A stretch of 64,000 nt of DNA from an uncultured Chloroflexia bacterium. GTDB taxonomy: Bacteria > Chloroflexota > Chloroflexia > QHBQ01 > JADMIH01. The translations under genes and the position numbers were made by a program. The notes below the pieces were generated by a model. The model did no database searches, was not told where the DNA came from, and saw only the letters and a list, made by a program, of their open reading frames with translations. The DNA lies in the NCBI GenBank assembly GCA_963797095.1, contig CAWCNY010000001.1:288001-352000 (forward strand), given 5' to 3'. This document shows, in pieces, positions 24,376 through 45,259 of this stretch. The first letter of the stretch is position 1, and every line of letters starts with the position of its first letter.

Positions 24376-24410
24376 GGGAGCACCTCCTTTTGTAGTTTGC
24401 TGCTCCAGTC

Positions 24411-24454
24411 TTCCCACATTTCTACCGGTTGGAATTACGGTAGAAATGTGGGAA
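24411..24454. promoter_or_regulatory. Perfect 17-bp inverted repeat with 10-nt spacer upstream of the beta gene
   Basis: TTCCCACATTTCTACCG-N10-CGGTAGAAATGTGGGAA. Confidence 0.6.
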
Positions 24455-24542
24455 TTGAGGTGGGAGTTCCGGCCTCCTTTTGTGCGCTCCAAGATTATCC
24501 GGCGGCAAGAGGCGCAGGATAACTCCCAACTCTACTTCACTT

Positions 24543-29282: not shown

Positions 29283-29687
29283 TCAACTCGCCAGGGTAAG
29301 TTGCTTGCTGTCCTGACCGAAGAAACCTTTCCCGCCGAAAGAGAGGATGTAGGAGATCACCATGTGCTGCCGCAGCTCCACCGTGTGCTCGCCCGGCGCC
29401 AGGCCGCCCGGTTTGTCCACGGTCAGGATGCCGACATCTCCAAACTCCCACTTCTCTTCCGTTTCGTTCTTGATTTCGCTCAAGCGGAAGTTGTGGCCGT
29501 TGATGGTAAGCGTTATCTGCTCGGGAGCGAAGCGCTCGCCGTCGACGGTGAGATCCGTATCGCCCAGCAGCGACAGCACGACGCCGCGATAATAGGGCAG
29601 GCGTATACCGATCTGGAAACCGGTCACCTTGCCCTCCTGCTCGACGTTGCGGAATACCTCACCCACGATCAAATACTTGTCAAACAT
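29283..29687 (-). CDS. C-glycoside deglycosidase beta subunit-like (DUF6379, YYRG class)
   Basis: MFDKY, RLPYYRG, WEFGD, KPGGLAPGEH. Confidence 0.85.
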   Translation of the reverse strand: MFDKYLIVGEVFRNVEQEGKVTGFQIGIRLPYYRGVVLSLLGDTDLTVDGERFAPEQITLTINGHNFRLSEIKNETEEKWEFGDVGILTVDKPGGLAPGEHTVELRQHMVISYILSFGGKGFFGQDSKQLTLAS

Positions 29688-29730
29688 CGTACATTTACCT
29701 CCCCTGCCCACCGGCAGGCTCAACTCGTGA

Positions 29731-30720
29731 CTATTCCTCGCCCAGTAGCCGCTTGAACATCTCCTGCTCGCGGCGTACCTGCTCCACGCTGTCCACCTCG
29801 TATACATCCTGTATATGGCGGTTGCCCTCGTACTCGCTGGACAGGTAGCCGCCGTAGCCCGCCTCCACAAGAACCGGGATGACGTCCTCGTAGGGGATGC
29901 TGTACTCGGTGTAGTCGGGCAGCATCTCGTAGAACTTGGCGTGGATATGGAAGATGAAGTCCTTTATCTTCAGCAGATCGCGCGGGTTTGAGTAGATGTA
30001 GTGGCCCGCCATACTCGCCAGGGCCACGTCTTGCTCGTTGCCGCCCATCGCTTTGACCTTGTCGACCAGGTCGTCCAGCGGTTCGTGGCTGTAGTAGCGC
30101 TCTACTATATACCCGACTATAGTCTCCTGGGCGCCGTCGCGCACGTAGCGCTCGGTAATTACTCGAGGGAAGCGCTTGACGAAGATGCCCATGTCGGGGA
30201 TAAACCCGAGGAACTTCGTGCCCGTGCGCTCTATAGTCTCGATGTGGGCCTTGATGCGCTCGTGGTCCACACTGAACGGCGAGTGGATCTCGACGCCCAT
30301 CTTCACGCCTATCTCCTCGGCGTATGGTATCGCCTTCTCCGCAATCTCAGGCGGTGTGTTTGCTATGACTCGGATTACCGGGCAGCCGAGCTTCTTCGCG
30401 AACTGCAGGTCGCGCACCACCGAGCGCAGCATTTCGTCCTCGTCCAGCAGGCGGCCCTGGTAGCGGTTGCGGTCAAGGAACATGTCGTGGCAGGTGGGCG
30501 TTGTGCCGTACCTCTCCATCCATTCGTGCCAGTTGTCGAAGAAGGCCCCGCCCGGGTTGGGGAAGCCGGGGGCCATCTGCTCGCCGATGATCTCTATGCC
30601 CTTTGCGCCCATCCTGGCAGCGGCGGCTATGCAATCTTCCAGGCTCATCTTGCGCAGGAAGTACTCTTCCTGGAAGCTGTACAGGCTCACTCCGCGTCTA
30701 ATGCCGGTCGTGTTGGTCAT
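29731..30720 (-). CDS. C-glycoside deglycosidase alpha subunit-like (SLYSFQEE class)
   Basis: RGVSLYSFQEE, VEIHS, PDMG, HIHAKFYEM, SSEYEGNRH. Confidence 0.85.
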   Translation of the reverse strand: MTNTTGIRRGVSLYSFQEEYFLRKMSLEDCIAAAARMGAKGIEIIGEQMAPGFPNPGGAFFDNWHEWMERYGTTPTCHDMFLDRNRYQGRLLDEDEMLRSVVRDLQFAKKLGCPVIRVIANTPPEIAEKAIPYAEEIGVKMGVEIHSPFSVDHERIKAHIETIERTGTKFLGFIPDMGIFVKRFPRVITERYVRDGAQETIVGYIVERYYSHEPLDDLVDKVKAMGGNEQDVALASMAGHYIYSNPRDLLKIKDFIFHIHAKFYEMLPDYTEYSIPYEDVIPVLVEAGYGGYLSSEYEGNRHIQDVYEVDSVEQVRREQEMFKRLLGEE

Positions 30721-30784
30721 TGTTTTTACCTCTTCGCGGCCCTGGGCCGTAGAGCGTGGTGACCTGGCTTCCACCCGGCACGCC

Positions 30785-31714
30785 CTACTCGGACCGGGCC
30801 AGTATGCTATCGATATCTTTCAGTTCCTCGGGCGTCAGGGTCCAACCGGCGGCCGCGACGTTGGCCCGTACTTGCTCAGGCTTCGTCGCACCGGCGAAAA
30901 CCGAGGCCACGACCGGGCGCGCGAGCAGCCATGAGACCGCGAGATCGAGCAGCGACCGGTCGTGAGCTTGCGCGAAGCTTATGAGGTCTTCGACCAGCGC
31001 CAGGTTGCGCTCCGTGAGGACCTGTGAGGCCCGGTCGCCAGGATCAGCGATGCGCGTCCCCTGCGGTACAGGTTTGCCGGCGCGAAACTTACCTGTGAGC
31101 AGCCCGTTAGCGAGGGGTGTATAAGGCAAGAAGGCCAGCCCTTGCCTTTCGCACTCAGGCAGGAGTTCCTGCTCCGCGTCGCGGCGCAGCATGTTGTACT
31201 GGTTCTGGACGCTGACAAAGTGCACGCCCTGGCCCTGGGCGGCATCCTCCGCCGCGCGCAACTGCTCCTCCGTGAAGTTTGAGCAGCCTATCTCGCGCAC
31301 CTTGCCCGCCCGCACCAGATCGGCGAGCGCGCCCAGCGTCTCCTCAAGCGGGGTCCTGGGGTCAGGCTGGTGAAACTGGTAGAGGTCGATCCGGTCGGTG
31401 CCGAGCCGGCGCAGGCTGCCTTCCACCGCCTGCTGTATGTAGGCCGGGCTGCCGCCGCTCTCCGGCCCCGACGTGTGATGCCCGAACTTGGTGGCCACGG
31501 CCACCTCATTGCGGCGGCTGCCCAGCGCCCGGCCGAGGTACTCCTCGCTCTTGCCGGCGCCGTACATTTCGGCTGTGTCGAAGAAGGTCACACCGGCATC
31601 AAGCGCGGCGTTGACGACAACCGCCGTGCCCTCGGCATCGAGCCGACGGCCGAAATTGTTGCACCCCAGGCCCACCACCGATACCTGGAGCGATCCTAGC
31701 TTGCGAGTTTCCAT
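30785..31714 (-). CDS. Aldo/keto reductase
   Basis: GLGCNNFG, FDTAEMYG, ATKFG, IDLYQFH, IGCSNF. Confidence 0.9.
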   Translation of the reverse strand: METRKLGSLQVSVVGLGCNNFGRRLDAEGTAVVVNAALDAGVTFFDTAEMYGAGKSEEYLGRALGSRRNEVAVATKFGHHTSGPESGGSPAYIQQAVEGSLRRLGTDRIDLYQFHQPDPRTPLEETLGALADLVRAGKVREIGCSNFTEEQLRAAEDAAQGQGVHFVSVQNQYNMLRRDAEQELLPECERQGLAFLPYTPLANGLLTGKFRAGKPVPQGTRIADPGDRASQVLTERNLALVEDLISFAQAHDRSLLDLAVSWLLARPVVASVFAGATKPEQVRANVAAAGWTLTPEELKDIDSILARSE

Positions 31715-31755
31715 AAGGCCGGTATTCCTTTTATGCACTTGCGCCTCGCCATGGC

Positions 31756-32148
31756 CTAGGCGGCTACTTTGAGCACCTTCGTATCGCGTCCCGCGAAGGT
31801 CTGCTGCCAGTAGCCGATCCGCAGGTAGGGTGCGAGCGACAGTGTGTGCTCGCCCGGCTTGAGGCCGCCCGGCTGATCTATCGTCACGATGCCCACCTCG
31901 CCGAACTCCCACCGGTCGTTTTCCTCTGTGAGAAACTGGTCGAGAGTGTACGTGTTGCCGTGGAGAGTCACGCGGATCCGGTCACGCGGTATGCTCTCAC
32001 TGTCCACGGTAAGCTCCAGGTCGTCTATCTGAGACACCTGGATGCCGCGGTAGTACGGTATGCGAGCGCCCAGCTGGAAACCTGTCGCCTCGCCGTTCCG
32101 CGTCACATTCTTGAAATCCTCACCGACGATTATGTATTTGTCGAACAC
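31756..32148 (-). CDS. C-glycoside deglycosidase beta subunit-like (YYRG class)
   Basis: RIPYYRG, RWEFGE, PGGLKPGEH. Confidence 0.85.
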   Translation of the reverse strand: MFDKYIIVGEDFKNVTRNGEATGFQLGARIPYYRGIQVSQIDDLELTVDSESIPRDRIRVTLHGNTYTLDQFLTEENDRWEFGEVGIVTIDQPGGLKPGEHTLSLAPYLRIGYWQQTFAGRDTKVLKVAA

Positions 32149-32180
32149 GCGTGGCCCTCCTCTCGCCGCTTGCGAGCCTT

Positions 32181-32576
32181 TCAGCCTACCAGTTGCAGCA
32201 CCTTCTTGTCCTCGCCTGAGAAGCCCTCGGGCACATAGGTCATGAGTACGGTTTCTTTCATCTCGACCCTGTGCTCACCAGGTTCCAGTCCGCCCGGCTT
32301 GCGCACCGTGACGGTGGCAACCTCACCGAACTCCCAGCGGTCCTCTATCTCGGTCTCCATCTCGTCGAGGGTGTAGGTGTTGCCGTGGACCGTGATGGTG
32401 AGCAGGTCGCGGGGGACCTGCTCACCATCAATAGTCAGGTCAATTCCGCCGAAGAGGGACAGGAAGATCCCGCGGTAGTACGGCAGCCGGGCGCCAAGCT
32501 GATAACCTACCGCCTTGCCGTCCTTCACCACGTTCTTGAATTCCTCGCCGACGATCATAAAGTTGTCGTGTATCAC
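32181..32576 (-). CDS. C-glycoside deglycosidase beta subunit-like (YYRG class)
   Basis: RLPYYRG, RWEFGE, PGGLEPGEH. Confidence 0.85.
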   Translation of the reverse strand: MIHDNFMIVGEEFKNVVKDGKAVGYQLGARLPYYRGIFLSLFGGIDLTIDGEQVPRDLLTITVHGNTYTLDEMETEIEDRWEFGEVATVTVRKPGGLEPGEHRVEMKETVLMTYVPEGFSGEDKKVLQLVG

Positions 32577-32579
32577 GCT

Positions 32580-33641
32580 TCACTCCTTCGCTGCGTCACC
32601 GGCACCATCCTGCCCGAGCAGGCGGCGCAGCATGACCTGGTGGCGGCGCACCTGCTCGACGCTGTCCACTTCGAAGGCATCCTCGATGTGGTACTGGCCC
32701 TCGTACTCGCTGGCGATGTAGCCCTGGTAGCCACCCTCCTTGAGGACGGAGATGACCTGGTCGTAAGGGATGCTGTACTCAGTGTAGTCGGGGAGCATCT
32801 CGTAGAACTTGCCATGGACGTGTACTATCCGGTGCATGTAATCGAGCATACGCCGGGGATCCGACCAAATGATGTAATAGAGGCTGAAGAGGGCGTTACT
32901 CACATCGCTCGCCGTGCCACCCATCCTGAGGATGTTCTCCTCCAATTTGGCCTTATCGGGCTGCGTGCCGTTTTCCCTCGCTTCCACGATATAGCGGACT
33001 ATCTCGTCCTTCATGCCGTTGCGCTTCCAGCGCTCGGTCAGGATGCGCGGCAGGCGACGCACGAAGATGCCACAATCGGGTATGACTCCCAGGTAGGGGG
33101 AGCCGACCCGCTCCATCATCTCGAGCTGCCCCTGAATCAGGGGTGCGTCGAGGTGGCTGGGCGCGTGGATCTCAAGGCCGAGCTTGACGTTGTACTTCTC
33201 GGCGTTTTCAGCAGACCGCGCCATTACCTCGGGCGGCGTATCGACGATCACGCGGATGACCGAGCAGCCGAGGCGGTTGGCGAACTTGATGTCGCGCAGC
33301 AGCAACTCGACCATCTCGTCCCCCGTCATGAGCCGTCCCTTGTAGAGGTTCATGTCAAGGAACATGTCGTGGCAGACCGGGGTAACGCCGTACTTCTCCA
33401 GCCAGGCGTGCCACTCCTCGAAGACCGAGTCGGGCACCTTCGGGAAGCCACGTATCATCTGCTCTGTCACGATTTCCACGCCCGGAATGCCAAGTCGCCC
33501 GGTAGTGGCAATGCAATCCTCAAGCGACATCTGCCCCAGCATGTACTCCTGCTGGAAGCTGTACAGGCTCACGGCCCGCTTGATGTTGGCCGTCTTCGTC
33601 GAGCCGGTAGTGCCGGCTGCCTGAGCCGTATTGCTGCTCAT
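32580..33641 (-). CDS. C-glycoside deglycosidase alpha subunit-like (SLYSFQ class)
   Basis: LEIHAP, PDCG, HVHGKFYEM, ASEYEG. Confidence 0.85.
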   Translation of the reverse strand: MSSNTAQAAGTTGSTKTANIKRAVSLYSFQQEYMLGQMSLEDCIATTGRLGIPGVEIVTEQMIRGFPKVPDSVFEEWHAWLEKYGVTPVCHDMFLDMNLYKGRLMTGDEMVELLLRDIKFANRLGCSVIRVIVDTPPEVMARSAENAEKYNVKLGLEIHAPSHLDAPLIQGQLEMMERVGSPYLGVIPDCGIFVRRLPRILTERWKRNGMKDEIVRYIVEARENGTQPDKAKLEENILRMGGTASDVSNALFSLYYIIWSDPRRMLDYMHRIVHVHGKFYEMLPDYTEYSIPYDQVISVLKEGGYQGYIASEYEGQYHIEDAFEVDSVEQVRRHQVMLRRLLGQDGAGDAAKE

Positions 33642-34687
33642 CTGACCTTCACCTCTTCCCGAGTCTCAACTCCCGAATGCGGCACTTCGCCCAGCAGTCG
33701 CTTGAGCATAACCTGGTGGCGGCGCACCTGCTCCACACTGTCTACAGGGAAGGCATCCTGTATGTGGCGGTTGCCTTCATATTCGCTGGAGAGGTAGCCA
33801 TTGTAGCCGCCCTCTATGAGAACCGGGATGATCTCCTCGTAGGGGATGCTGTACTCTGTATAGTCTTCCAGCATCTCGTTGAATTTGGCGTGGAAATGGA
33901 AGATGTAGGGCATGAAATCGAGCATACGGTGTGGGTCCACATAGATGTTGTGGGTGCCCATGCGCATCATATTGACGTCGTCCTGGGTGGCGCCCATCCG
34001 GCGTATGTCTTCCTCCAACGTGTCAAGCCCTTCATGGCGGTTGTATTTATCTGTGATCACGTGAGCTATTTCCGGGCGCATGCCGTCGCGCACCCAGCGG
34101 TCGCTCACCACGCGTGGCAGGCGCTTGGTGTAGATGCCGAAGTCAATCACGAATCCCACGTGCTTGGAGCCTGTGCGCTGGAACATCTCAACCAGGCTCT
34201 TCGAGAATGCGTCGTCAAGATGGCTGGGTGCGTGGATCTCGTTTCCCAATCGCACGTTGTACTCCGCGGCGTAGGGCGCCGCCTTCTCCATGACTGCTGG
34301 CGACGTGTCGTGGATTACGCGTATCACTGAGCAGCCCAATTTGGCGGCGTTCTTGATGTCCCGGACCAGCACGGCGACACGCTCGTCCTCGGTCATCACG
34401 CGGCCAGGGTACTTGTTCCAGTCGATAAATTGGTCGAGGCAGACGGGTGTGCGCCCGTATTTCTGCATCCAGCCTTGCCACTGCTCGAAGAACAACTCGG
34501 GGACGTTGGGATAGTGGCGGATCATCTGGTCGCCGATGATCTCAATACCAGGTATGTCCAACTTAGCGCAAGTCGCGATGATCTCCTCCAGCGTCATTTT
34601 GCGGAGGAAGAACTCCTCCTGGAAGCTATAGAGGCTGACGCTGCGCTTAATGTTGTGCGCTTTGGCTGTAGTTGTGTTGCTCATCAT
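33638..34687 (-). CDS. C-glycoside deglycosidase alpha subunit-like (SLYSFQEE class)
   Basis: NEIHAP, IDFG, HFHAKF, SSEYEG. Confidence 0.85.
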   Translation of the reverse strand: MMSNTTTAKAHNIKRSVSLYSFQEEFFLRKMTLEEIIATCAKLDIPGIEIIGDQMIRHYPNVPELFFEQWQGWMQKYGRTPVCLDQFIDWNKYPGRVMTEDERVAVLVRDIKNAAKLGCSVIRVIHDTSPAVMEKAAPYAAEYNVRLGNEIHAPSHLDDAFSKSLVEMFQRTGSKHVGFVIDFGIYTKRLPRVVSDRWVRDGMRPEIAHVITDKYNRHEGLDTLEEDIRRMGATQDDVNMMRMGTHNIYVDPHRMLDFMPYIFHFHAKFNEMLEDYTEYSIPYEEIIPVLIEGGYNGYLSSEYEGNRHIQDAFPVDSVEQVRRHQVMLKRLLGEVPHSGVETREEVKVR

Positions 34688-34788
34688 TCTCTCCTTGAAC
34701 TGCCATTGCTGAACCGGACAGCGATGGCTGCTGTGAATCTGTTCCAATGTATCCGGTATGCAGAGAGCCAGGGTCGCTGCCCTACCCA

Positions 34789-35181
34789 TCAGTTGTCGAT
34801 GGTGAGCTTCTTGGCGTCGCTCCCCTTGAAGCCGAAAGGCACATAGGAAATCTTCAATTGCTGCGACAGCTCAACCTCGTGTTCCCCCGGCGCAAGCCCG
34901 CCCGGCTTCTCCACTGTAAGGAGGCCCACCTCGCCGAACTCCCACCTGTCGCCGGTCTGGTCCTCCACCTCGGTCAGCCGGTAGGTGTTGCCGTGTAAGG
35001 TCACCGAGATCTTGTCGGGCGAGAAGTGCTCGCCGTCCACTGCAAGGTCGGTCGTGCCCACCAGGGAGAGTGTAATACCGCGGTAGTAGGGCAGCCGCTC
35101 GCCGACCTGGAAGCCGGCAACCTTGCCATCTTTCTCCACGTTCCTGAACTCTTCGCCAACGATAATATACTTATCGAACAT
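34789..35181 (-). CDS. C-glycoside deglycosidase beta subunit-like (YYRG class)
   Basis: MFDKY, RLPYYRG, RWEFGE, KISYVP. Confidence 0.85.
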   Translation of the reverse strand: MFDKYIIVGEEFRNVEKDGKVAGFQVGERLPYYRGITLSLVGTTDLAVDGEHFSPDKISVTLHGNTYRLTEVEDQTGDRWEFGEVGLLTVEKPGGLAPGEHEVELSQQLKISYVPFGFKGSDAKKLTIDN

Positions 35182-35226
35182 CTGTGTAACCTCCATCTAC
35201 ATCAGCCCAGCCGGTGAGCAACCTCC

Positions 35227-35325
35227 CTAGCTGTGCAGTGCTAAACGCTCCGTCGTTCCGCCCATCACAATGCCCCACGTGCGGTTGTCGATGCGCCGCG
35301 TTGCCTCGTGATCTACGAGGGTGCG
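35227..35325 (-). pseudogene. Orphan 3' fragment of a beta-subunit gene of the 38141 type
   Basis: Encodes TLVDHEATRRIDNRTWGIVMGGTTE, nearly identical to the tail of 38141-38605; DNA 35251-35316 matches about 38175-38240. Confidence 0.7.
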
Positions 35326-35348
35326 GGCGCGGCCGCGGTGGAGAGATA

Positions 35349-35753
35349 TTAGCGCGCCAGCTCCAACACCTTGCGGTCGTGCGTACGGAAGCCATATGGC
35401 AGCGCATAGGTGATCATCAGCCGCTGCACCAACTCTACCTCGTGCGAGCCCGGTTTCAGCCCGCCCGGCTTCTCCACCGTCAGGATACCTACATCGCCGA
35501 ACTCCCAGCGATCGCGGCACTGGTCCTCGATCTCGGACAGCCTGAAGGTGTTACCGTGAAGGGTTAGAGTCACCTTGTCGGGCGAGAAGTGCTCGCCGTC
35601 CACCGACAGGTCGGCGGGGCGCAGCACAGAGAGGACCACACCTCGATAGTAAGCCAAGCGAGCGCCGATCTGGAAACCGGTAACCTCACCGTCCTGCTCG
35701 ATGTTCCCGAACTCTTCGCCCACTATCATGTATTTGTCGAGCATCTTGATCAT
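35349..35753 (-). CDS. C-glycoside deglycosidase beta subunit-like (YYRG class)
   Basis: RLAYYRG, RWEFGD, KPGGLKPGSH. Confidence 0.85.
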   Translation of the reverse strand: MIKMLDKYMIVGEEFGNIEQDGEVTGFQIGARLAYYRGVVLSVLRPADLSVDGEHFSPDKVTLTLHGNTFRLSEIEDQCRDRWEFGDVGILTVEKPGGLKPGSHEVELVQRLMITYALPYGFRTHDRKVLELAR

Positions 35754-35765
35754 CTCCTCTCGCGG

Positions 35766-36803
35766 CTAAACGCCGACAGGCTCGGCGGCCGGTACTTCGC
35801 CCAACAACTTCTTGAGCATCGTCTGCTGGCGGCGCACCTGCTCGATGCTCTCGAACTCGATGTTGCGCTGGCCCTCGTACTCGCTCGACAAGTAGCCGTT
35901 ATAGCCGCCCTCGATAAGCACGGGCACTATCTCCTCATAGGGGATGCTGTACTCGGTCGTATCGTCGACCATCTCCCAGAACTTGGCGTGGATGTGCACT
36001 ACCCGCGGCATGATCTTCAGGAGGGTGCGCGGGTCGGTGTAGACCATGTGGGTCGTCATGAAAGCGGCACTCTGGTCCGCCGGGCCGCCGCCCATCTTCG
36101 CGATCTCTTCGGGCAGCTTGTCGATCGCGGCGAGGTCGTGGGTGTTGTAGACGGCGAAGATATGCTCCAACATCTCGGGCCGGGCGCCCTTGCTGATCCA
36201 CTGGTCGGTGATCACGCGAGGCAAGCGCTTCACGAACATACCCATGTCGGGAACGAAGCCGAGGTAGGGCGAGCCGAGGCGCTCCATATACTCCCACAGT
36301 TCCTGGGTGAAGGGGTGCTCTACGTGGAACGGAGCATGGATCTCCCAGCCCCATTTGACGCCGACCTTCTCCGCATATTCGGCGACCCTGGCCAACACGT
36401 TCAGGTCGGTCGGGTGAATGTCGCGCACGACAGAACAGCCGAGACGCTTGGCGAAGTCGAGGTCGCGCACGAACGCCTGGTACTGCTCGTCGGCCGTCAT
36501 GACGCGGCCCTTGTACATGTTCCAGTCGAGAAACGCGTCCTGGGCGACTGGCGTGCGGCCGTACTTCTCAATGGCCGCATGCCACATTTTGAACCACTCC
36601 TCGCCGGGGTCGGGGAAGCCGGGGGCCATCTGCTCGCCGATGATCTCGATACCTGGTATGTCGAGCTCCGCGCACTTGGCGATTATGTCTTCCAGCGTCA
36701 TCTCCCGCAGGAAGTACTCTTCCTGGAAGCTGTAGAAGCTAACGCTCCGCTTGATGTTGTGGCGCTTGGCGCTGTTGCCAGGCCCGTTTGTCGCCATTGT
36801 CAT
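35766..36803 (-). CDS. C-glycoside deglycosidase alpha subunit-like (SFYSFQEE class)
   Basis: WEIHAP, PDMG, HIHAKFWEM, SSEYEG. Confidence 0.85.
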   Translation of the reverse strand: MTMATNGPGNSAKRHNIKRSVSFYSFQEEYFLREMTLEDIIAKCAELDIPGIEIIGEQMAPGFPDPGEEWFKMWHAAIEKYGRTPVAQDAFLDWNMYKGRVMTADEQYQAFVRDLDFAKRLGCSVVRDIHPTDLNVLARVAEYAEKVGVKWGWEIHAPFHVEHPFTQELWEYMERLGSPYLGFVPDMGMFVKRLPRVITDQWISKGARPEMLEHIFAVYNTHDLAAIDKLPEEIAKMGGGPADQSAAFMTTHMVYTDPRTLLKIMPRVVHIHAKFWEMVDDTTEYSIPYEEIVPVLIEGGYNGYLSSEYEGQRNIEFESIEQVRRQQTMLKKLLGEVPAAEPVGV

Positions 36804-36921
36804 TTGCTCACCTCCAAAAACTCAGGTTCGCCCGGTCCTCATCTGGGCCCGAAGACTCTCGACCTGCGGGGGCAGGCTCACGTAGTCAGGCTGGCGCGAC
36901 TTCAGGTGTCGTACCATGCTG

Positions 36922-36952
36922 AGTATTGCCGCCAATCCCGCGCGGCAATACT
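36922..36952. terminator. Intra-operon 11-bp hairpin (attenuator or mRNA-stabilising stem)
   Basis: AGTATTGCCGC / GCGGCAATACT just after the Gfo stop; no U-tract. Confidence 0.4.
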
Positions 36953-36959
36953 AAGGAAC

Positions 36960-38144: not shown

Positions 38145-38605
38145 GCTCTCACTCCTTGCAATTCTATGTTCTCCGTCGTGCCGCCCATCACAATGCCCCA
38201 CGTGCGGTTATCGATGCGGGGAGTTGCCTCGTGATCCACAAGAGTGCTGTAGCGCATGTAGTAAATATCCAGACTGAACCGCACTGTTACCTCGTGCTCC
38301 CCCGGCGCGAGACCCCCCGGCTTGGCGACAGTCAGGACGCCAAACTTGCCGTACTCCCAGCGGTTGTCAGGATCATTCTCGAATTGCGCCAGCGGGTAGG
38401 TCTTCTCGCCCAGCGTCACCGAAATCTTGTCGGGCGAGAAGCTCTCGCCGTCCACCACAAGCTCGATCCCCTTGAGCATCGAGAGATAAAAGCCCCGGTA
38501 GTATGGCACGCGCACATTGATTTGGAACCCCGTGATGCGCCCGTCCTGCTCCACGTTCTTGAAGCTCTCCTTGGCGATCACGTATTTGTCGGATATGGTC
38601 TTCAT
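38141..38605 (-). CDS. C-glycoside deglycosidase beta subunit-like with an extended C-terminal loop
   Basis: RVPYYRG, RWEYG, KPGGLAPGEH, then about 15-20 extra residues. Confidence 0.8.
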   Translation of the reverse strand: MKTISDKYVIAKESFKNVEQDGRITGFQINVRVPYYRGFYLSMLKGIELVVDGESFSPDKISVTLGEKTYPLAQFENDPDNRWEYGKFGVLTVAKPGGLAPGEHEVTVRFSLDIYYMRYSTLVDHEATPRIDNRTWGIVMGGTTENIELQGVRA

Positions 38606-39687
38606 CTCCCTGCCTCGCTTCCCACCAGAGCCGGGCCTGTTGTGCCTGCCCTGCTGCCCGTGTCGTCTGCTTGCGTTTCGCCCAACAGATGCCTGAGCAT
38701 GACCTGATGGCGGCGCACCTGCTCTACGCTATCTGATTCTGTGTCGTCCACGAGCCAGCCGTTGCCTTCATACTCGCTCGAGATGTAGCCGTTGTATCCT
38801 CCCTCGATCAGCACCGGCACAACTTCTTCGTAGGGGATGGCCTCCTCCCGGTACCCGCTAACAGGGTCCTCAACCATATCGTTGAACTTGCCGTGGACGT
38901 GGAGTATGTGCGGCATGTACTCTGCCAGCCGCTGTGGGTCGGCGAAGATGAAGCGGGCCGCGCGGTTTGCCATGGCGATCTCGTCCTGTGTGCCCCCCAG
39001 GCGCTCGACCTCTGCGGGTATCTGTCCTATGCTTTCGTGGCTGTTGTACGCTTTGGTAATGAAGCCGGCGATGTGCGGGCGCATACCGTTGGCCAGCCAG
39101 TAGCTGAGGAAGATTCGAGGCATATGCTTGGTGAAAATCCCCATGTCGACTGTGAAGCCGAGGTAGGGGGAGCCAACCTCGCGCATCATGGTCACGTGCT
39201 TCTGCATCCATACATCATCCAGCTGGTGCGGCGCATGGACCTCGAGTGCCTGCTTGACATTGTATTTCTCGGCATACGGAGCCACACGCGCCAGGATGGA
39301 GGGCGGGGTGAGGTGCAACACCCGGATAACGGTGCAGCCAAGGCGATTCGCGAACACGATGTCTCGGATCGCCAACTCGACCATCTCGTCCTCGGTCATG
39401 AGGCGGCCGCTGTACCTGTTGATGTCGAGGAACATATCGTGGGCGACGGGAGTGCGGCCGTACTTGGCAAGCCAGCCTTTCCACTGCGCCAGCCACTCAT
39501 CGCCGGGATCGGGGAAGTTGGGCACCATCTGCTCCCCGATCACCTCAATTCCGGGGATACCCAGATCGGCTGCAGTCTTGATGCAATCTTCCAGGCTCAT
39601 CTTGCCTATGAAGTAGTCGTGCCGCCAGCTATAGAACGTAACACAACGCTTGATGTCGTGCGGCACGGTCGTGTCTGTCTCATCCAT
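38602..39687 (-). CDS. C-glycoside deglycosidase alpha subunit-like (divergent SLYSFQEE-class member)
   Basis: VTFYSW, LEVHAP, VDMG, HVHGKF, SSEYEG. Confidence 0.85.
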   Translation of the reverse strand: MDETDTTVPHDIKRCVTFYSWRHDYFIGKMSLEDCIKTAADLGIPGIEVIGEQMVPNFPDPGDEWLAQWKGWLAKYGRTPVAHDMFLDINRYSGRLMTEDEMVELAIRDIVFANRLGCTVIRVLHLTPPSILARVAPYAEKYNVKQALEVHAPHQLDDVWMQKHVTMMREVGSPYLGFTVDMGIFTKHMPRIFLSYWLANGMRPHIAGFITKAYNSHESIGQIPAEVERLGGTQDEIAMANRAARFIFADPQRLAEYMPHILHVHGKFNDMVEDPVSGYREEAIPYEEVVPVLIEGGYNGYISSEYEGNGWLVDDTESDSVEQVRRHQVMLRHLLGETQADDTGSRAGTTGPALVGSEAGR

Positions 39688-39699
39688 TCCCAGCTCCTT

Positions 39700-40779
39700 T
39701 CACGCCGACGCGGCTAGATACTTGTTAACCATGGCGTGCCACTTCTGCACTTCTTGCATGGCGGCATTCGGATCCGCGGTGAATCTGCTGCCCTCCCACT
39801 CGGCAGAGATAGAGCCGCTGTAGCCGCTCTCCTTGAGCAGCTTGATAATTTCGCCGTAAGGGATAGAAGGCTCAACTCCGCTCTCGTCTATGTGGTAGAA
39901 CTTGCCGTGGATGTGGCGGCTGTAAGGGAGCACCTCGCGCCAGGTCTCTACCGGCATGTGCCCGAACATCGTAATTACCGAGTTGAGCGAGCCGACGAGC
40001 GATGCCGGCGCCTGGTAGCGCTGGGCTGCGCCGGCAAGGGCGGCAAACTTCTGCATGGACGGCTCATCGCTGTGCCAGATCTCTCTCGTCGTTTCGATCA
40101 GCGGCTCGGGCGCGCCCATCTGCCGCAGCATCGGCCAATATCCATCGGGCGGCTTGGTCATGGAGCAGCTGAGGTCGGGCACGAAGCCAAGGTAAGGCGA
40201 CCCGATGCGGTCGTAAAGCTCCCGCAACTCGATAACTTCAGGATGTGAGGGGGAGAGGGGCGAATGCAGTTCGCAGGCCACCTGCACCTCCGCCCGCTCG
40301 GCGGCCGGCACCAGCCTCTGTATGGCTTCGGGTCCGGCGAGCGCCTGAATGCGCAGCACCGGAAAGCCCAGCTTACGGGCCGCCTCGATCTGCGGCTCTA
40401 TGTAGGCTACCGTTTCCTCCACCGTCATTAGCCGGCCCGGGAAGCGGCCCAGGTCTACGTTGCCGGACAGCGAGGTGGGCCGCAGACCCAGGCGCGTCGT
40501 AACTTCCCTGAACAGCTCGGCGAACTCATCAGTGATATCGGGGTAGTCGCGTATGCTCTGGAAGCCCACGACCTCGACGCCGGGCCCCACTCCCAGCTCT
40601 GCTACCTTCTCCATCAACTGCTCAAGAGTGAAGCGGCGTGTCTGCCACCGGCTGGTGAAGCTGTAGAGGGTAGTACCCAGGACGATATTGCCGGTGTTTG
40701 CGCCGCCTGCGCCGCCTGCGCCGCCTGCGCCGCCTGCGCCGTCCGTCCCGCTTGTGCTAGATCTATTGTAAGTGTTCAT
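39700..40779 (-). CDS. C-glycoside deglycosidase alpha subunit-like (SAEWEG class)
   Basis: GTTLYSFT, CELHS, PDLS, HIHGKFY, SAEWEG; (GGA)n repeat at the N-terminus. Confidence 0.85.
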   Translation of the reverse strand: MNTYNRSSTSGTDGAGGAGGAGGAGGANTGNIVLGTTLYSFTSRWQTRRFTLEQLMEKVAELGVGPGVEVVGFQSIRDYPDITDEFAELFREVTTRLGLRPTSLSGNVDLGRFPGRLMTVEETVAYIEPQIEAARKLGFPVLRIQALAGPEAIQRLVPAAERAEVQVACELHSPLSPSHPEVIELRELYDRIGSPYLGFVPDLSCSMTKPPDGYWPMLRQMGAPEPLIETTREIWHSDEPSMQKFAALAGAAQRYQAPASLVGSLNSVITMFGHMPVETWREVLPYSRHIHGKFYHIDESGVEPSIPYGEIIKLLKESGYSGSISAEWEGSRFTADPNAAMQEVQKWHAMVNKYLAASA

Positions 40780-40789
40780 CGCTTGGCCC

Positions 40790-41182
40790 TCACGCGGCTA
40801 CCTGTGTTGTGGCATACTGCCAAGTTGGGGTCAAGAACTTGCCCGGGCCCACCAGGATGTAGGGAGCACGCACCGCCAGTTGTAGCTCTAACCTGTGGCT
40901 CTCGCCCGCCTTCACCCGGCCCGGGTCGCGCACGCCCAGCAGAGCGGAGTCGAGCACGAACCAGAACTCATCGGCATGTGCGGCCAGCTCCTCCAGCCGG
41001 TATCGGTGCCCGTTGATGCCGAAGCGAATAGCGTCGGGCGGCACAGGCCGCCCGTCCAGGCTCAACTCGACCCTTTCGACGCACGACAGAGGCAGTGACC
41101 TGTACCAGTTGAGGCGGGCCTCCAACTGGTAGCCTTCTTGTGTAGCCCGCAGGCTGTTGTCCTCTATTATGTTCAGAGGCAT
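40790..41182 (-). CDS. C-glycoside deglycosidase beta subunit-like (WYRSLPLS class)
   Basis: RLNWYRSLPLSC, FWFVLD, RAPY. Confidence 0.85.
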   Translation of the reverse strand: MPLNIIEDNSLRATQEGYQLEARLNWYRSLPLSCVERVELSLDGRPVPPDAIRFGINGHRYRLEELAAHADEFWFVLDSALLGVRDPGRVKAGESHRLELQLAVRAPYILVGPGKFLTPTWQYATTQVAA

Positions 41183-41198
41183 GTGAGCACCACCCTCC

Positions 41199-42266
41199 CT
41201 ACTTGGTCTCGCCGAGCAACTGCTTGAACATCTCTTGCTCGCGGCGCACCTGCTCCACGCTGTCTACCTGGTAAATGTCCTGGATGTGGCGGTTGCCTTC
41301 GTACTCGCTGGACAGGTAGCCATTGTAGCCGCCCTCGATCAGCACGGGCACCACCTCGTCGTAGGCAATGCTGTACTCGGTGTAGTCGGGCAGCATCTCG
41401 TAGAACTTGGCGTGGATATGCACGAAGTGCGGCATGAACTCGAGCAAGCGCTGCGGGTTCTCGTAAATCTGGAACTTGGCCATGCGGGCCATCTCGCGGT
41501 CGTAGTCGTTCGCGCCCATTTTCTCCACCTCGTCAGGTAGGTTGTCGAGGTTGTCGTGGTTGTTGAACTTCTCGAGGACGTAGTTCACGATATTCTGGTG
41601 CGCGCCGTTCCTGACGAGGCGGTCGCTCGTCACGCGAGGGAAGCGCCTGGTGAAGATGCCCATGTCCGGGGTGAAGCCGAGATATGGAGAGCCGAGCCGA
41701 TCCATGAGCTTGATTCGATCTTTGAACCACTCTTCCTCGAAGTGGTGCGGCGCGTGGATCTCGATGCCCATCTTGACATCGTATTTCTCGGCGAATGGCA
41801 CCGCTCGCTCCAACACGGGCAGCTCGGTGTTGTGGATGACTCGGATGACTTTGCAGCCGAGGCGGTTGGCGAAGCGCAGGTCGCGCACCACCGAGTCAAC
41901 CATCTCGTCCTCGGTCATTTTGCGGCCCTTGTAGATGTTCCAGTCGAGGAACATGTCGTGGCATACGGGTGTACGGCCATACTTGCGCATCCACTCATGC
42001 CACTGCTCGAAGAAGGCCTCGCCCGGCTCGGGGAAGCCAGGCACCATCTGCTCGCCGATGATCTCGATACCTGGTATGTCGAGCTTTTCGCAGGTGGCGA
42101 TAATGTCCTCCAGGCTCATTTTGCGCAGGAAGTACTCTTCCTGGAAGCTATACAGGCTCACGCCGCGCTTGATGGTGGGGGTCTTGGCGGTGCTTGCACC
42201 GGTGCCGGCGCCAGATACACTTGGGCTACTCATCATCTTCTCCTTCGGCTCCATCAGAGCCTCCAT
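41199..42266 (-). CDS. C-glycoside deglycosidase alpha subunit-like (SLYSFQEE class)
   Basis: IEIHAP, PDMG, HIHAKFYEM, SSEYEGNRH. Confidence 0.85.
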   Translation of the reverse strand: MEALMEPKEKMMSSPSVSGAGTGASTAKTPTIKRGVSLYSFQEEYFLRKMSLEDIIATCEKLDIPGIEIIGEQMVPGFPEPGEAFFEQWHEWMRKYGRTPVCHDMFLDWNIYKGRKMTEDEMVDSVVRDLRFANRLGCKVIRVIHNTELPVLERAVPFAEKYDVKMGIEIHAPHHFEEEWFKDRIKLMDRLGSPYLGFTPDMGIFTRRFPRVTSDRLVRNGAHQNIVNYVLEKFNNHDNLDNLPDEVEKMGANDYDREMARMAKFQIYENPQRLLEFMPHFVHIHAKFYEMLPDYTEYSIAYDEVVPVLIEGGYNGYLSSEYEGNRHIQDIYQVDSVEQVRREQEMFKQLLGETK

Positions 42267-42269
42267 TTA

Positions 42270-42662
42270 TCAGTGGACTAATTCCAGAACTTTGTGATCG
42301 TGACCTCTGAAGCCTGCAGGCACATACGATATCTTCAGGTGCTGTTCCACATCTACCTCGTGCCGGCCCGGCTTGAGCCCACCCGGCTTGTTCACGGTCA
42401 CGATACCGACCTCACCGAACTCCCAGCGGTCCACGTCCTGGTCTTCCATCTCGGCGAGTTTGTAGGTGTTCCCGTGCAGGGTGACCGTCAACCCCTCCGG
42501 GGCGATGCTCTCGCCATCCACACTAAGTTGGGGAGGATCGACCAGGGATATCACGATGCCACGATAATATGGCAAGCGCAGTCCGACTTGGAACCCCGTG
42601 ACCTCACCGTCCTTCTCCACGTTCCTGAACTCCTCACCCACGATCATGTATTTGTCAAACAT
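42270..42662 (-). CDS. C-glycoside deglycosidase beta subunit-like (YYRG class)
   Basis: MFDKY, RLPYYRG, RWEFGE, KISYVP. Confidence 0.85.
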   Translation of the reverse strand: MFDKYMIVGEEFRNVEKDGEVTGFQVGLRLPYYRGIVISLVDPPQLSVDGESIAPEGLTVTLHGNTYKLAEMEDQDVDRWEFGEVGIVTVNKPGGLKPGRHEVDVEQHLKISYVPAGFRGHDHKVLELVH

Positions 42663-42690
42663 AGCGTGTCTCCTTCTCCCGACTAGACCC

Positions 42691-43743
42691 TTAGCGCCCA
42701 GCAGAAACGGCCGACGTCTCGCCAAGCAGCCGTTTGAACATCACGTGTTGGCGGCGCACCTGCTCTACGCTGTCTACGGGGAAAGCATCCTGGATATGGC
42801 GGTTGCCCTCGTACTCGCTCGACAGATAGCCGCCGTAGCCGCCCTCGATCAGCACGGGGATGATCTCGTCATAGGGGATGCTGTACTCTGTGTAGTCGGG
42901 CAGCATTTCATTGAACTTGGCGTGAATGTGGACCACGTGCGGCATGATCGGCAGGAGGCGGCGCGGGTCGACGTAGATCATGGCTCGGCTCGTATAGGAG
43001 GCCGCCCACTTGTCAACAGGCCCACCGCCCATCTTCTCAACATCTTCCGGCAGGTGCTCCTGTCCTTCATGGCTGTTGTAGACCTCGACGATGTGATCGA
43101 CGATGTCTTGGCGAGCTCCGTCGCGCACCCACCGCTCGCTGACTACCCGTGGCATACGCTTGGTGAAAATGCCCATGTCGGGAGTGAAGCCCAGGTAAGG
43201 AGAGCCAAGCCGCTCCATTAGCTCCAACAGCTCCTGCATTGCGGGATTGTCGGGGTGGTTGGGCGCGTGTATCTCCACGCCTATCTTGACGTCAAGCTCC
43301 TCGGCGTAGGGCACCGAGCGCGCCAGCACGTTCAGGCTGGCCGTGTGGATCCCGCGGATGACTTTGCAGCCGAGGTGGTTGGCGAAGCGCAAGTCGCGCA
43401 CTACCGATTGCACCTGCTCATCCTCGGTCATGGTGCGGCCCTTGTGCTTGTTCCAGTCGAGGAACATGTCGTGGCACACCGGAGTGCGGCCGTACTTGCG
43501 CATCCACTCGTGCCAGTTCTGGAAAAATGCCTCACCAGGCTCGGGGAAGCCAGGGGCCATCTGCTCGCCGATGATCTCGATACCTGGTATATCGAGCTTT
43601 TCGCAGGTGGCGATAATGTCCTCCAGGCTCATTTTGCGCAGGAAATACTCTTCCTGGAAGCTGTACAGGCTCGCCCCTCGCTTTATGTTGTTGGCGGGGA
43701 CTTGCTTGGTGCTGTTTGCCTCGGTTGTGCTTGCGTTGCTCAC
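42691..43743 (-). CDS. C-glycoside deglycosidase alpha subunit-like (SLYSFQEE class)
   Basis: VEIHAP, PDMG, HIHAKF, SSEYEGNRH. Confidence 0.85.
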   Translation of the reverse strand: MSNASTTEANSTKQVPANNIKRGASLYSFQEEYFLRKMSLEDIIATCEKLDIPGIEIIGEQMAPGFPEPGEAFFQNWHEWMRKYGRTPVCHDMFLDWNKHKGRTMTEDEQVQSVVRDLRFANHLGCKVIRGIHTASLNVLARSVPYAEELDVKIGVEIHAPNHPDNPAMQELLELMERLGSPYLGFTPDMGIFTKRMPRVVSERWVRDGARQDIVDHIVEVYNSHEGQEHLPEDVEKMGGGPVDKWAASYTSRAMIYVDPRRLLPIMPHVVHIHAKFNEMLPDYTEYSIPYDEIIPVLIEGGYGGYLSSEYEGNRHIQDAFPVDSVEQVRRQHVMFKRLLGETSAVSAGR

Positions 43744-43785
43744 GTTCGGTCACCTCCATGTGCATGAAAGCCGCAAATCTGATAC

Positions 43786-44181
43786 TCAGGCGGCTAGATT
43801 GAGGTCTTTATGGTCGTTGCCGCGGAAGCCCCGACCCGGTATGTAACTAATGTCCAGGTGGATGAACAGGTCGAACTTGTGCTCGCCAGGGGCAAGGCCA
43901 CCCGGTTTGTTCATCCTCAGGATGCCCACTTCGCCGAACTCCCACCGGAAGTCGGGCATCGACTTGAGGGCTGTGAGAGGGTACGTCTGGCCATGCAAGG
44001 TTACGCTGATCTTTTCGGGTGGGATGTGCTCCCCGTCAACAGCCAGGTCTATTGTCTTGATGAGCGACACGCAAATGCCGCGGTAGTACGGAAGGCGAGC
44101 GCCGACCTGGAAGCCGGTAATCTCGCCGTCCTTGCTGACGTTGCGGAATTCCTCGCCCACGATCATGTATCTGTCAAACAT
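43786..44181 (-). CDS. C-glycoside deglycosidase beta subunit-like (YYRG class)
   Basis: MFDRY, RLPYYRG, RWEFGE, ISYIP. Confidence 0.85.
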   Translation of the reverse strand: MFDRYMIVGEEFRNVSKDGEITGFQVGARLPYYRGICVSLIKTIDLAVDGEHIPPEKISVTLHGQTYPLTALKSMPDFRWEFGEVGILRMNKPGGLAPGEHKFDLFIHLDISYIPGRGFRGNDHKDLNLAA

Positions 44182-44203
44182 CTCACTGAACTCCTTATTT
44201 GGG

Positions 44204-45259
44204 CTACCGGGCGGCAGTTTCCGTAGCCGGAACCTCCCCGATCAGCTGCTTGAACATTGCATGTTGCCGGCGAACCTGCTCGGTGCTGTCCACCGGGAAG
44301 GCATCCTGTATATGGCGGTTGCCTTCGTACTCGCTCGACAGGTGGCCATCGAAACCCGCCTCGATCAGCACGGGCACAACCTCGTCATAGGCGATGCTGT
44401 ATTCGGTGTAATCGGGCAGCATCTCGTAGAACTTGGCGTGGATGTGGAAGATGTAGTCCTTAATCTTCAGCAGGTCGCGAGGTTTCTCGAAGATGCCCAG
44501 GCGCATGCCATACCCGAGCTGGAAAGCCTCCTGCTCCGTGGCTCCGATCTTCGTTGACGCCTCTTGCAGATCGTCCATGTAGAGGCCGCTGTTGTATAGC
44601 TCTACGAACCTATCGGCAATCTCCTGCCGCAAGCCGTCGCGCACCCAGCGCTCGCTGACCACGCGCGGAAAGCGGCGCGTGAAGATGCCCATATCGGGCA
44701 GGAAGCCGTAGTGGCGCGTGCCCGTGCGCTGGATCACCTCCAGGTGCAACTCGATCCATTCGCCGTTCAGGCGGCGGGGTGAGTGGATCTCCACCGCGAG
44801 CTTGATATCGCGCTCCTCGGCGTAGGGCAGAGCCAACTCGATCCACTTCGGCGCGATACCCGAACCGACGCGGATCACCTTGCAGCCAAGCTTGTGAGCG
44901 AACTCGATGTCGCGCACCAGGTCGTGACGAGCCTCCTCGTCAGTCATCATCCGTCCCTCGTACTTGTTCCAGTCGAGGAAGAGGTCGTGGCACACCGGAG
45001 TGCGGCCGTACTTGCGCATCCACTCGTGCCAGTTCTGGAAAAATGCCTCACCAGGCTCGGGGAAGCCAGGGGCCATCTGCTCGCCGATGATCTCGATACC
45101 TGGTATGTCGAGCTTTTCGCAGGTGGCGATAATGTCCTCCAGGCCCATTTTGCGCAGGAAATACTCTTCCTGGAAGCTGTACAGGCTCGCCCCTCGCTTT
45201 ATGTTTTGGGCGGGGACCTTTGCCGGTCCTGGTGTGCCTTGTGTATCAGCGTTAGCCAT
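44204..45259 (-). CDS. C-glycoside deglycosidase alpha subunit-like (SLYSFQEE class)
   Basis: VEIHS, PDMG, HIHAKFYEM, SSEYEGNRH. Confidence 0.85.
   Translation of the reverse strand: MANADTQGTPGPAKVPAQNIKRGASLYSFQEEYFLRKMGLEDIIATCEKLDIPGIEIIGEQMAPGFPEPGEAFFQNWHEWMRKYGRTPVCHDLFLDWNKYEGRMMTDEEARHDLVRDIEFAHKLGCKVIRVGSGIAPKWIELALPYAEERDIKLAVEIHSPRRLNGEWIELHLEVIQRTGTRHYGFLPDMGIFTRRFPRVVSERWVRDGLRQEIADRFVELYNSGLYMDDLQEASTKIGATEQEAFQLGYGMRLGIFEKPRDLLKIKDYIFHIHAKFYEMLPDYTEYSIAYDEVVPVLIEAGFDGHLSSEYEGNRHIQDAFPVDSTEQVRRQHAMFKQLIGEVPATETAAR

Follow-up and report, generated by a model that had tools for sequence, protein, structure and literature searches.

We analysed a 64,000-nucleotide stretch of contig CAWCNY010000001.1 from an uncultured Chloroflexia bacterium (the window); in this soil-type genome, an island of about 36 kb codes for subunits of C-glycoside deglycosidases (CGDs). 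C-glycosides such as puerarin, vitexin, orientin, mangiferin and carminic acid withstand ordinary glycosidases and, to our knowledge, the CGD system is the known bacterial path to C-glycoside aglycones. The core of the island (29283-45259, minus strand) carries eight alpha genes of the SLYSFQEE type (PF01261) and eight beta genes of the YYRG type (PF19906), which together make up class I. An earlier reading of this stretch, made from the letters alone (the sequence-only reading), had proposed that these eight alphas and eight betas might pair freely and could form up to 64 heteromers with differing aglycone pockets. Our data point in another direction: the 16 proteins probably form eight essentially fixed heteromers, some of which would be encoded in trans.

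Genes of the class I array

In transcription order, the array reads A1 B1 A2 B2 A3, B10' A10', A4 B4, GFO2, A5 B5a B5b A6 A7 B7a B7b, AKR, A8 B8, and A1 is preceded by B9' and then A9'. Comparison with the open reading frames (ORFs) and their Pfam matches indicated that the order given by the sequence-only reading (a-b-a-b-a...a-b...a-b-b-a-a-b-b-(AKR)-a-b) and its end coordinates were exact for the SLYSFQEE/YYRG class, and the residues that it listed after YYRG (ICVS, IVIS, FYLS, VVLS, ITLS, IFLS, IQVS, VVLS) were also recovered. The two gaps in this order are occupied by a class II pair in the order beta then alpha (40790-41182 / 39700-40779) and by a DgpA-type oxidoreductase. No class I beta comes after A3 or A6, and no alpha comes before B5b or B7b. 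Alpha and beta genes stand side by side for 12 of the 14 alphas overall and for 6 of the 8 in class I.

All genes of the array are located on the minus strand. A1 (44204..45259; 351 aa) matches PF01261 and 8QVC_A (E 2.5e-97) and keeps all seven active-site residues. Its neighbour B1 (43786..44181; YYRG-ICVS) matches PF19906 with 119.7 bits and 8QVC_B with an E-value of 7e-24. A2 (42691..43743; PF01261, active-site set kept) and B2 (42270..42662; YYRG-IVIS; PF19906, 128 bits) are followed by A3 (41199..42254; PF01261, active site kept), after which no class I beta is found; directly after A3 comes the class II pair B10'/A10', the beta of which begins 16 nt on. Among the class I alphas, A4 (38602..39687; PF01261) diverges most by identity, and the interface comparison showed that it carries private residues. 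B4 (38141..38605; YYRG-FYLS; PF19906) carries a 24-aa C-terminal extension and overlaps both A4 and GFO2 by 4 nt. GFO2 (36960..38144) is a DgpA-type Gfo/Idh/MocA glycoside 3-oxidoreductase according to its matches to 9M3D_B (377 bits) and 7XR9_A (374 bits). Then come A5 (35766..36803; PF01261, active site kept), B5a (35349..35753; YYRG-VVLS; PF19906) and B5b (34789..35181; YYRG-ITLS; PF19906), for which A3 is the likely partner. A6 (33638..34687) represents the 'W/Y74' subtype, being the only alpha with Y74 and a member of a separate tree clade, and it runs with a 4-nt overlap directly into A7 (32580..33641; PF01261), for which interface comparison revealed private residues. B7a (32181..32576; YYRG-IFLS; PF19906, interface comparison) and B7b (31756..32148; YYRG-IQVS; PF19906; candidate partner A8) precede the aldo/keto reductase gene (AKR; 30785..31714; PF00248, 264 bits). 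The array ends with A8 (29731..30720; PF01261), which is basal in the alpha tree, and B8 (29283..29687; YYRG-VVLS; PF19906), the only beta with K79, which stands out in the beta tree and in the covariation data.

The region comprises 22 co-oriented genes with gaps of at most 167 nt and four 4-nt overlaps. A scan for promoters and terminators returned 3 promoter-like and 5 terminator-like sites, both counts being under the shuffle means, and no operon borders could be called. Because of the common orientation, the short gaps, the overlaps and the fact that terminator-like sites are fewer than in shuffles, the 16 class I genes are probably co-transcribed. A gene for a LuxR-type STAND regulator (47012..50182, minus strand; NB-ARC, TPR and GerE domains in Pfam) lies directly upstream of the array.

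PF01261 was matched by 14 of 14 alphas of the island and PF19906, above its curated cut-off, by 14 ORFs (65-134 bits). When the whole 6.0-Mb assembly was searched, every one of the 14 PF19906 matches fell into the window, and this was also the case for the 14 alpha genes found in the genome with a profile built from the eight alphas. The 14+14 CGD genes lie between 11.1 and 46.8 kb of the window. The 8:8 total of the sequence-only reading is therefore true of one subclass, but the total for island and genome is 14:14. Its assignment to the CGD family is confirmed by the PF19906 and PF01261 matches and by the nearest solved structures, which are CGDs (8QVC, chains A and B, for class I). NCBIfam provided no family for the alphas and betas tried (6 of 6) and gave only sub-threshold names for the Gfo and AKR proteins.

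In AgCGD2 the Mn ligands are Glu147, Asp179, His269, Lys271 and Glu305 (Mori 2021, PMC8563793), which correspond in a HMMER alignment to E157, D189, H274, K276 and E310 of A2. The catalytic His of the E-x-H motif is H143 in DgpC (He 2022, PMC9939296). These five Mn ligands, the catalytic His and the equivalent of Tyr17 are invariant across the eight class I alphas. Of the 14 alphas of the island, 13 retain the metal ligands and the catalytic His; the exception is the frameshifted A11', which lacks the last three ligands. Taken together, these data show, at the level of sequence comparison, that the island is composed of 14 alpha and 14 beta genes for CGD subunits. Each enzyme would be a Mn-dependent alpha/beta heteromer that cuts the C-C bond of a 3-oxo-C-glycoside, and this substrate would be supplied by DgpA-type NAD oxidoreductases, three of which are encoded in the island. 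Since DgpA-like oxidoreductases occur here together with CGD genes that have kept the Mn and catalytic residues, the island appears to encode the DgpA-type two-step route (sugar 3-oxidation, then C-C cleavage), multiplied many times.

Probable duplication, rearrangement and gene conversion

DNA alignments of 1.35-2.55 kb cross the alpha-beta junctions of A1B1, A2B2, A4B4, A5B5a, A7B7a and A8B8, and the 2.55-kb alignment pairs A2-B2-A3 with A1-B1-A2. Because these alignments run through the junctions, we infer that whole alpha+beta units were duplicated in tandem as the class I array grew. A few rearrangements on a local scale, or duplications of single genes, would later have produced the B5a/B5b and B7a/B7b doublets, left A3 without a beta and placed A6 directly before A7. 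Gene conversion between alphas would have come afterwards. In the alpha tree, A6 is an old lineage: together with 20 foreign alphas it forms a clade of 21 rows (support 99/97), and trees with A8 or A3 in its place were rejected (p-AU 0.0024 and 0.0004, the groups having been named after the tree was seen).

A tract of 255 nt (minus strand; A1 copy 44963..45217, A2 counterpart 43447-43701) is 97.6% identical between A1 and A2, third codon positions included, compared with about 72% over the whole genes. A3 shares this tract at 90-91%. Such a pattern is the sequence signature of recent gene conversion among the alphas. Among the betas we found no gene conversion, the highest identity in any 60-nt window being 85%.

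The non-coding spacer between B5a and B5b contains a 77-nt direct repeat (35248..35324, minus strand), which is 89.6% identical to 38171-38247. There the repeat is coding and specifies the C-terminal extension of B4, immediately ahead of GFO2; the genome has two copies only. Judged from its position and its partner copy, the repeat marks a past rearrangement at precisely one of the odd junctions. A contig of run X1 joins the end of B5a to letters resembling the B4 tail; it represents either a recombinant, with GFO2-A5-B5a duplicated between the 77-nt repeats, or an assembly chimera.

The non-alternating gene order might also be an assembly error in a repetitive array. Mis-joining of paralogous arrays can occur, and the X1 contig, which is 246 nt long, passes from the B5a end (35248-35410) into 83 letters resembling the B4-tail/GFO2 start. 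However, outside the 255-nt tract the paralogues are 63-75% identical in DNA, which makes them too divergent to collapse, and the genome assembly consists of 8 contigs. Moreover, the B7b/B7a junction is bridged by a soil-metagenome contig of run X1, which carries 12 differences and thus comes from another strain, the A6/A7 junction is bridged by a contig of run X2, and the B5b start with its spacer is covered by a contig of run X4. Paralogue divergence and independent contigs across the odd junctions make a misassembly very improbable.

Partner choice among the class I subunits

The claim that beta contributes to the substrate pocket agrees with the published structures, in which the active site lies at the alpha/beta interface; for AgCGD2/MiCGD CarB/CarC, the beta subunit provides its N-terminus and the beta7-beta8 loop (Mori 2021, PMC8563793). 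The complex of A3 and B5b was modelled with an ipSAE of 0.90, compared with 0.08 for the best control; the runs agreed in 100% of the contacts and the partner pLDDT was at least 91. In calibration, 116 of 157 solved complexes and 2 of 215 mismatched pairs attained the ipSAE mark; these rates apply only approximately here, since we supplied our own alignments. In this model the predicted interface comprises alpha residues 35, 38, 41-44, 66-70, 72-74, 102-109, 140-142, 322 and 325-326 and beta residues 1-2, 4-5, 29, 33-37, 39-40, 73-74, 76, 79, 81-83, 110 and 112-113. At the modelled interface and pocket lie the equivalent of Tyr17, the N-terminus of beta and the C-terminal loop, in agreement with the literature.

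An invariant core of 6 of the 28 alpha and 8 of the 22 beta positions is present at this predicted interface, and many more positions are nearly invariant. The subunits fall into more and less similar ones. A1, A2, A3, A5 and A8 are 79-92% alike at the predicted docking residues (A3 vs A2, 89%), and B5b shares 91% of them with B2. A4, A6 and A7 are 43-68% alike to the others, and for B4 and B7a the values are 45-59%. A4/B4 and A7/B7a carry private interface residues and look co-adapted in the modelled interface. As for the betas in general, the sequence-only reading had located their variation just after YYRG and in the C-terminal strand; these parts are indeed most variable (3-7 residue types per column in the eight betas), but positions 42-47 and 74-78 vary to the same extent.

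Residue covariation was evaluated in 89 non-redundant natural neighbour pairs. The strongest interface signal came from alpha105/beta37 (T-G 28, W-V 22, Y-S 12). At alpha74/beta79 we counted F-R 42 times, Y-K 24 times, C-R 10 times, Y-R 5 times and F-K not once. Within the window, Y74 occurs in A6 only and K79 in B8 only, and the neighbours A8-B8 would combine F74 with K79. B8 bears the VVL/K signature of A6's foreign clade, and in the beta tree it groups with the betas of the same 20 foreign relatives of A6 (support 94/98). In the 8x8 log-odds matrix, A6xB8 was the sole positive cell (+3.2) and A8xB8 reached -63. An optimal one-to-one assignment from this matrix was set aside, nearly all cells being strongly negative. 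At alpha105, W is found in A1, A2, A3, A5 and A6, and beta37 is C, V, V, T and V in B1, B2, B5a, B5b and B8. A4-B4 combines I with Y and A7-B7a combines M with F at these positions, and A8 has R and B7b has Q. This residue pairing suggests the combinations A6:B8, A8:B7b and A3:B5b.

In genomes with two class I subtypes, each alpha adjoins a beta of its own subtype, and the covariation score chose the own-subtype beta in 16 of 16 cases, by 35 to 122 log units. Over the six neighbour pairs of the window, alpha and beta distances correlated with r = 0.61, a value that was reached by 21 of 720 permutations. Among the assignments of the unpaired genes, A3:B5b with A6:B7b gave r = 0.684 (rank 296 of 40320), compared with 0.476 for A3:B7b with A6:B5b. 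The best mirror-tree permutations scramble the neighbour pairs, so that this approach has low resolution here. Co-divergence of alphas and betas appears to be present but weak. As for the congruence of alpha and beta trees, which the sequence-only reading had proposed as a check, the 130 beta columns carry too little signal to prove or exclude incongruence.

With A3 and A6 lacking a following class I beta, strict neighbour pairing fails, and some non-neighbour pairing is required if all 16 genes work. For A3, the class II beta B10' next to it was considered as a possible partner as well. In the eight essentially fixed heteromers that we favour, A1:B1, A2:B2, A4:B4, A5:B5a and A7:B7a would pair side by side and A3:B5b, A6:B8 and A8:B7b in trans. 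The three trans pairs are our best guess from sequence and model, and A6 is predicted to work with B8 across 4 kb. Equal numbers of alphas and betas are what one-to-one pairing leads one to expect, and free mixing has no need of them.

Several observations weigh against this assignment. The good score of the A3+B5b model may reflect likeness to solved CGDs, and the docking residues were read from a modelled, not from a solved interface. When the conversion tract was removed, the correlation over the neighbour pairs dropped to r = 0.40, which 102 of 720 permutations equalled or exceeded, and by distance correlation the type-based and neighbour-based assignments cannot be told apart (r = 0.688 vs 0.684). 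Trees in which B8 is grouped with B2, B5a and B5b were not rejected (p-AU 0.22), nor were those with B5b or B2 in the place of B8 (p-AU 0.10 and 0.135). Asked for the partner within a genome, the covariation model was correct in only 15 of 22 cases, and it always failed where the paralogues belonged to one subtype. Moreover, its signal and the trees have ancestry in common. Most sequences of the window are hybrids unseen by this model, so that all cells but A6xB8 are negative. At the DNA level, B5b and B7b each match the adjacent beta best (B5b to B5a, 74.7% over 359 nt; B7b to B7a, 69.9% over 299 nt), which suggests that both may be beta-only duplicates rather than displaced partners. Finally, A8-B8 aligns as a unit with other alpha-beta units, which favours A8:B8.

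Free pairing of all eight alphas with all eight betas draws on the likely co-transcription of the 16 genes, on the invariant core of the predicted interface and on the weak co-divergence. It also agrees with the finding that DgpB and DgpC, when produced separately, assemble once their lysates are mixed (He 2022, PMC9939296). Furthermore, in the tandem arrays of the foreign loci L005 and L001, alphas of 51-59% identity stand beside betas of 82-85% identity. In L005, which comes from a Chloroflexia-labelled metagenome-assembled genome (MAG; G441), this concerns three tandem class I betas, two of which are identical at the ten variable interface positions compared; these similarities suggest concerted evolution of the betas of that array. 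Divergent alphas beside nearly alike betas imply that docking within a subtype is evidently tolerant. On the other hand, when the betas of PuCGD and EuCGD were swapped, no co-elution was observed (Mori 2021, PMC8563793). The interface residues of A4/B4, A7/B7a and A6/B8 are private or subtype-specific, two-subtype genomes keep each alpha beside a beta of its own subtype, and the window betas have diverged as much as the alphas (54% and 54%), interface positions 36, 37, 40, 110 and 112 included. We therefore regard free pairing as unlikely, and the private interface residues, the A6/B8 signature and the failed swap speak against the figure of up to 64 heterodimers by non-cognate combination.

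More restricted sharing deserves separate consideration. The conversion tract covers 20 of the 28 predicted beta-docking residues, all of which are identical in A1 and A2, and because of this identity limited partner sharing within a subgroup is plausible. Together with the 79-92% likeness of five alphas at the docking residues, this would speak for mixing. Substantial mixing, which we consider improbable, would most plausibly be limited to A1, A2, A3, A5 and perhaps A8 on the alpha side and to B1, B2, B5a, B5b and perhaps B8 on the beta side. One might go further and assume that conversion deliberately keeps the docking face alike while the remainder of the alphas and the pocket parts of the betas diverge. 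The subunits of the subgroup would then be shared, giving at most about 25 C-deglycosidases with differing aglycone pockets from one operon, with A4:B4 and A7:B7a being insulated. This would amount to a modular mix-and-match catabolic enzyme system, a scenario that we consider improbable. The present evidence narrows the mixing hypothesis rather than supporting it.

Alternatively, only the six neighbour pairs might work, with A3, A6, B5b and B7b being redundant, idle by-products of duplication and deletion, either unpaired or in the course of being lost, and the 8:8 ratio being coincidental. The DNA likeness of B5b and B7b to their own neighbours and the 77-nt scar between B5a and B5b, which indicates a rearrangement there, agree with this possibility; A11' elsewhere in the island is already frameshifted, and foreign class I alphas without a nearby beta do exist (L099, L101, L103). 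However, all four genes are intact ORFs with plausible ribosome-binding sites, A3 and A6 keep every catalytic and metal residue, and B5b and B7b keep the invariant interface core. With at most 52-68% identity to any paralogue, the four reading frames have stayed open through long divergence, and we rate their being idle as rather unlikely.

Island context, distribution and known systems

Beyond the 8+8 class I genes, the island carries six pairs in the order beta then alpha, namely three class II pairs, B9'/A9', B11'/A11' and B12'/A12'. The class II pairs B10'/A10', B13'/A13' and B14'/A14' share 47-59% mutual identity, and their nearest solved structure is AgCGD2 (7DNM). B10' (40790..41182, minus strand) is of the WYRSLPLS type, matches PF19906 with 81 bits and is 51-59% identical to B13' and B14'. 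Its alpha A10' (39700..40779, minus strand) matches 7DNM_A with an E-value of 4.8e-63 and keeps the active-site set. B13' (13603..14037; PF19906), A13' (12611..13606; PF01261), B14' (12181..12642; PF19906) and A14' (11150..12184; PF01261), which has Phe at the Tyr17 site, all lie on the minus strand, as does the divergent pair B9' (46272..46757; PF19906, 65 bits) and A9' (45298..46275; PF01261; His at the Tyr17 site). B11' (23968..24492, minus strand; PF19906) is divergent but intact. Its alpha A11' (22957..23953, minus strand) is split by a frameshift according to frame analysis: the N-terminal 266 aa are read in one frame and the motifs HVHGKF (HxK) and STEYEG (SxEYEG) in another, which makes it either a pseudogene or the result of a sequencing error. 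B12' (18996..19397, plus strand; YYRG-IWLS; PF19906, 124 bits) is a ninth YYRG beta with 35-45% identity to the class I betas, and it is followed by its alpha A12' (19439..20398, plus strand; PF01261).

Pfam searches identified seven Gfo/Idh/MocA genes in all. Two of them, at 15246..16397 (minus strand) and 24543-25832, are the second and third DgpA-type paralogues (GFO_IDH_MocA), each with 72-76% nucleotide identity to GFO2 over about 1.13 kb. Another one (27954-29183, minus strand), just downstream of B8, contains an in-frame tandem peptide repeat with a unit of about 9 aa, present roughly 3 times, as a low-complexity insert. A glucokinase, a further TIM-barrel gene, LacI- and LuxR-type regulators and an ABC transporter were detected with Pfam in or beside the island, and the first 10 kb of the window carry genes of the ring-cleavage type (FAD monooxygenase, extradiol dioxygenase, FAA hydrolase). 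A fifteenth TIM-barrel gene (26808-27773, minus strand) matches PF01261 with 124 bits, has no beta partner and carries Ser in place of the Lys271 ligand. It weakly resembles myo-inosose dehydratase and may process the released keto-sugar. Two duplicated segments lie within 17752-18966 (17977-18098 vs 18847-18966 and 17752-17849 vs 18679-18776, each 82% identical). They fall into two small minus-strand ORFs (17823-18404 and 18516-18968) that had no Pfam match and look like a paralogue pair of unknown kind beside a LacI regulator. At 58198-60267 (plus strand), a 689-aa ORF fuses an MFS transporter (PF07690) to a cytidylate-kinase-like domain (PF13189), which is an unusual fusion.

None of 24 genomes from the same genus, many of which were incomplete (57-93%), had a PF19906 match above cut-off; among 16 other genomes from the order or class there was one, and a sample of 400 genomes of the phylum added one more. 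The CGD island thus looks lineage-specific, although base composition shows no break at it. Class I homologues are widespread: the MAGs that carry them bear the labels Chloroflexota, Bacteroidota, Actinomycetota and others. All eight class I alphas of the window fall, in the alpha tree, within a clade of Chloroflexota-labelled sequences. A metagenome scan with A6 yielded 80 loci but no close copy of the island, the best identity being 64% for a full-length match and 71% for one partial match.

In 158 foreign loci, we counted the neighbourhoods of those class I alphas that had 600 nt or more of downstream sequence, 129 in number. In 117 of these 129 cases, a class I beta directly follows the alpha. 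The 12 exceptions comprise two artefacts of the distance rule (L054, L040), five pairs in the order beta then alpha (Bacillota-type loci), L087, L150 and the trio L099/L101/L103. Non-alternating order is therefore rare among these loci, yet not unique to the window. In L087 the order is alpha-alpha-beta, with 60% identity between the two alphas, and in L150 an alpha is followed by alpha pieces. For L099, L101 and L103, no beta was found in the available sequence, which extends 0.8 to 8.5 kb downstream. In three foreign tandem arrays that we aligned, all class I betas read YYRGVVLS, whereas the wider foreign beta set varies at positions 36-37, where Val occurs in 12 and 15 of 28.

With eight diverged but related alpha/beta pairs in one cell, partner choice of CGDs and the tuning of substrate range by the beta subunit become directly testable. 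The most useful new leads are the position of the conversion tract on the docking surface as predicted, two residue pairs that may determine specificity (alpha105/beta37 and alpha74/beta79) and the predicted A6-B8 pair; the island itself constitutes a ready enzyme panel for biocatalytic deglycosylation. The literature searched contained no report of a CGD array this large and, apart from the swap of Mori 2021, nothing on the mixing of subunits.

Among the solved systems, 8QVC/8QVD/8UMC (alpha annotated as 'xylose isomerase-like TIM barrel', beta as 'DUF6379') shares with class I the order alpha then beta and the SLYSFQEE and YYRG motifs, and A1 could be aligned to 8QVC over 328 residues. This enzyme, which we take to be that of Deinococcus aerius, is a single pair, whereas the window holds eight paralogous pairs in shuffled order and with diversified residues after YYRG. 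AgCGD2 of Arthrobacter globiformis (7DNM/7DNN) is the closest solved relative of the class II pairs and has the same Mn ligands. The organisms of AgCGD2 and MiCGD carry one or two pairs, the island 14. Their oxidation step is carried out by the FAD oxidase CarA, whereas the island has NAD enzymes of the DgpA type. The logic of 3-oxidation by a Gfo/Idh/MocA protein followed by CGD cleavage is shared with DgpA/DgpB/DgpC of strain PUE and with DfgAB of Eubacterium cellulosolvens, and the order beta then alpha of DgpBC and DfgAB is also that of six island pairs. DgpBC and DfgAB are alpha4beta4 enzymes of gut Firmicutes, and in the pull-downs of Mori 2021 (PMC8563793) their betas were not exchangeable. 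In the genomes examined there, alpha and beta genes stand side by side (PMC8563793).

Many CGD pairs per genome are also known from Catenibacillus decagia, for which six dgpBC clusters and 11 dgpA homologues were described and read as substrate breadth (PMC11170127); in other Catenibacillus strains, dgpA genes are found away from dgpBC (PMC11170127). Here, however, a single 36-kb island brings together 14 pairs, and eight of these form a tandem array. A second large island, of 45 kb, is that of G441 (contig C6, 22-67 kb; L159-L161 and L005), which has 11 betas of several subclasses and, like the window, combines these subclasses with three tandem class I pairs. Every beta of G441 adjoins an alpha, one beta being split in two ORFs, and its tandem betas are 82-85% identical, whereas the window shows a disrupted order and diverged betas. 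Taken together, these comparisons characterize the locus as a known enzyme system in a new arrangement and as a real, unusually large CGD island. With 14 pairs, it holds the largest CGD arsenal among those searched, ahead of G441 (11) and of Catenibacillus decagia, whose six clusters per genome are the most reported in the literature searched (PMC11170127).

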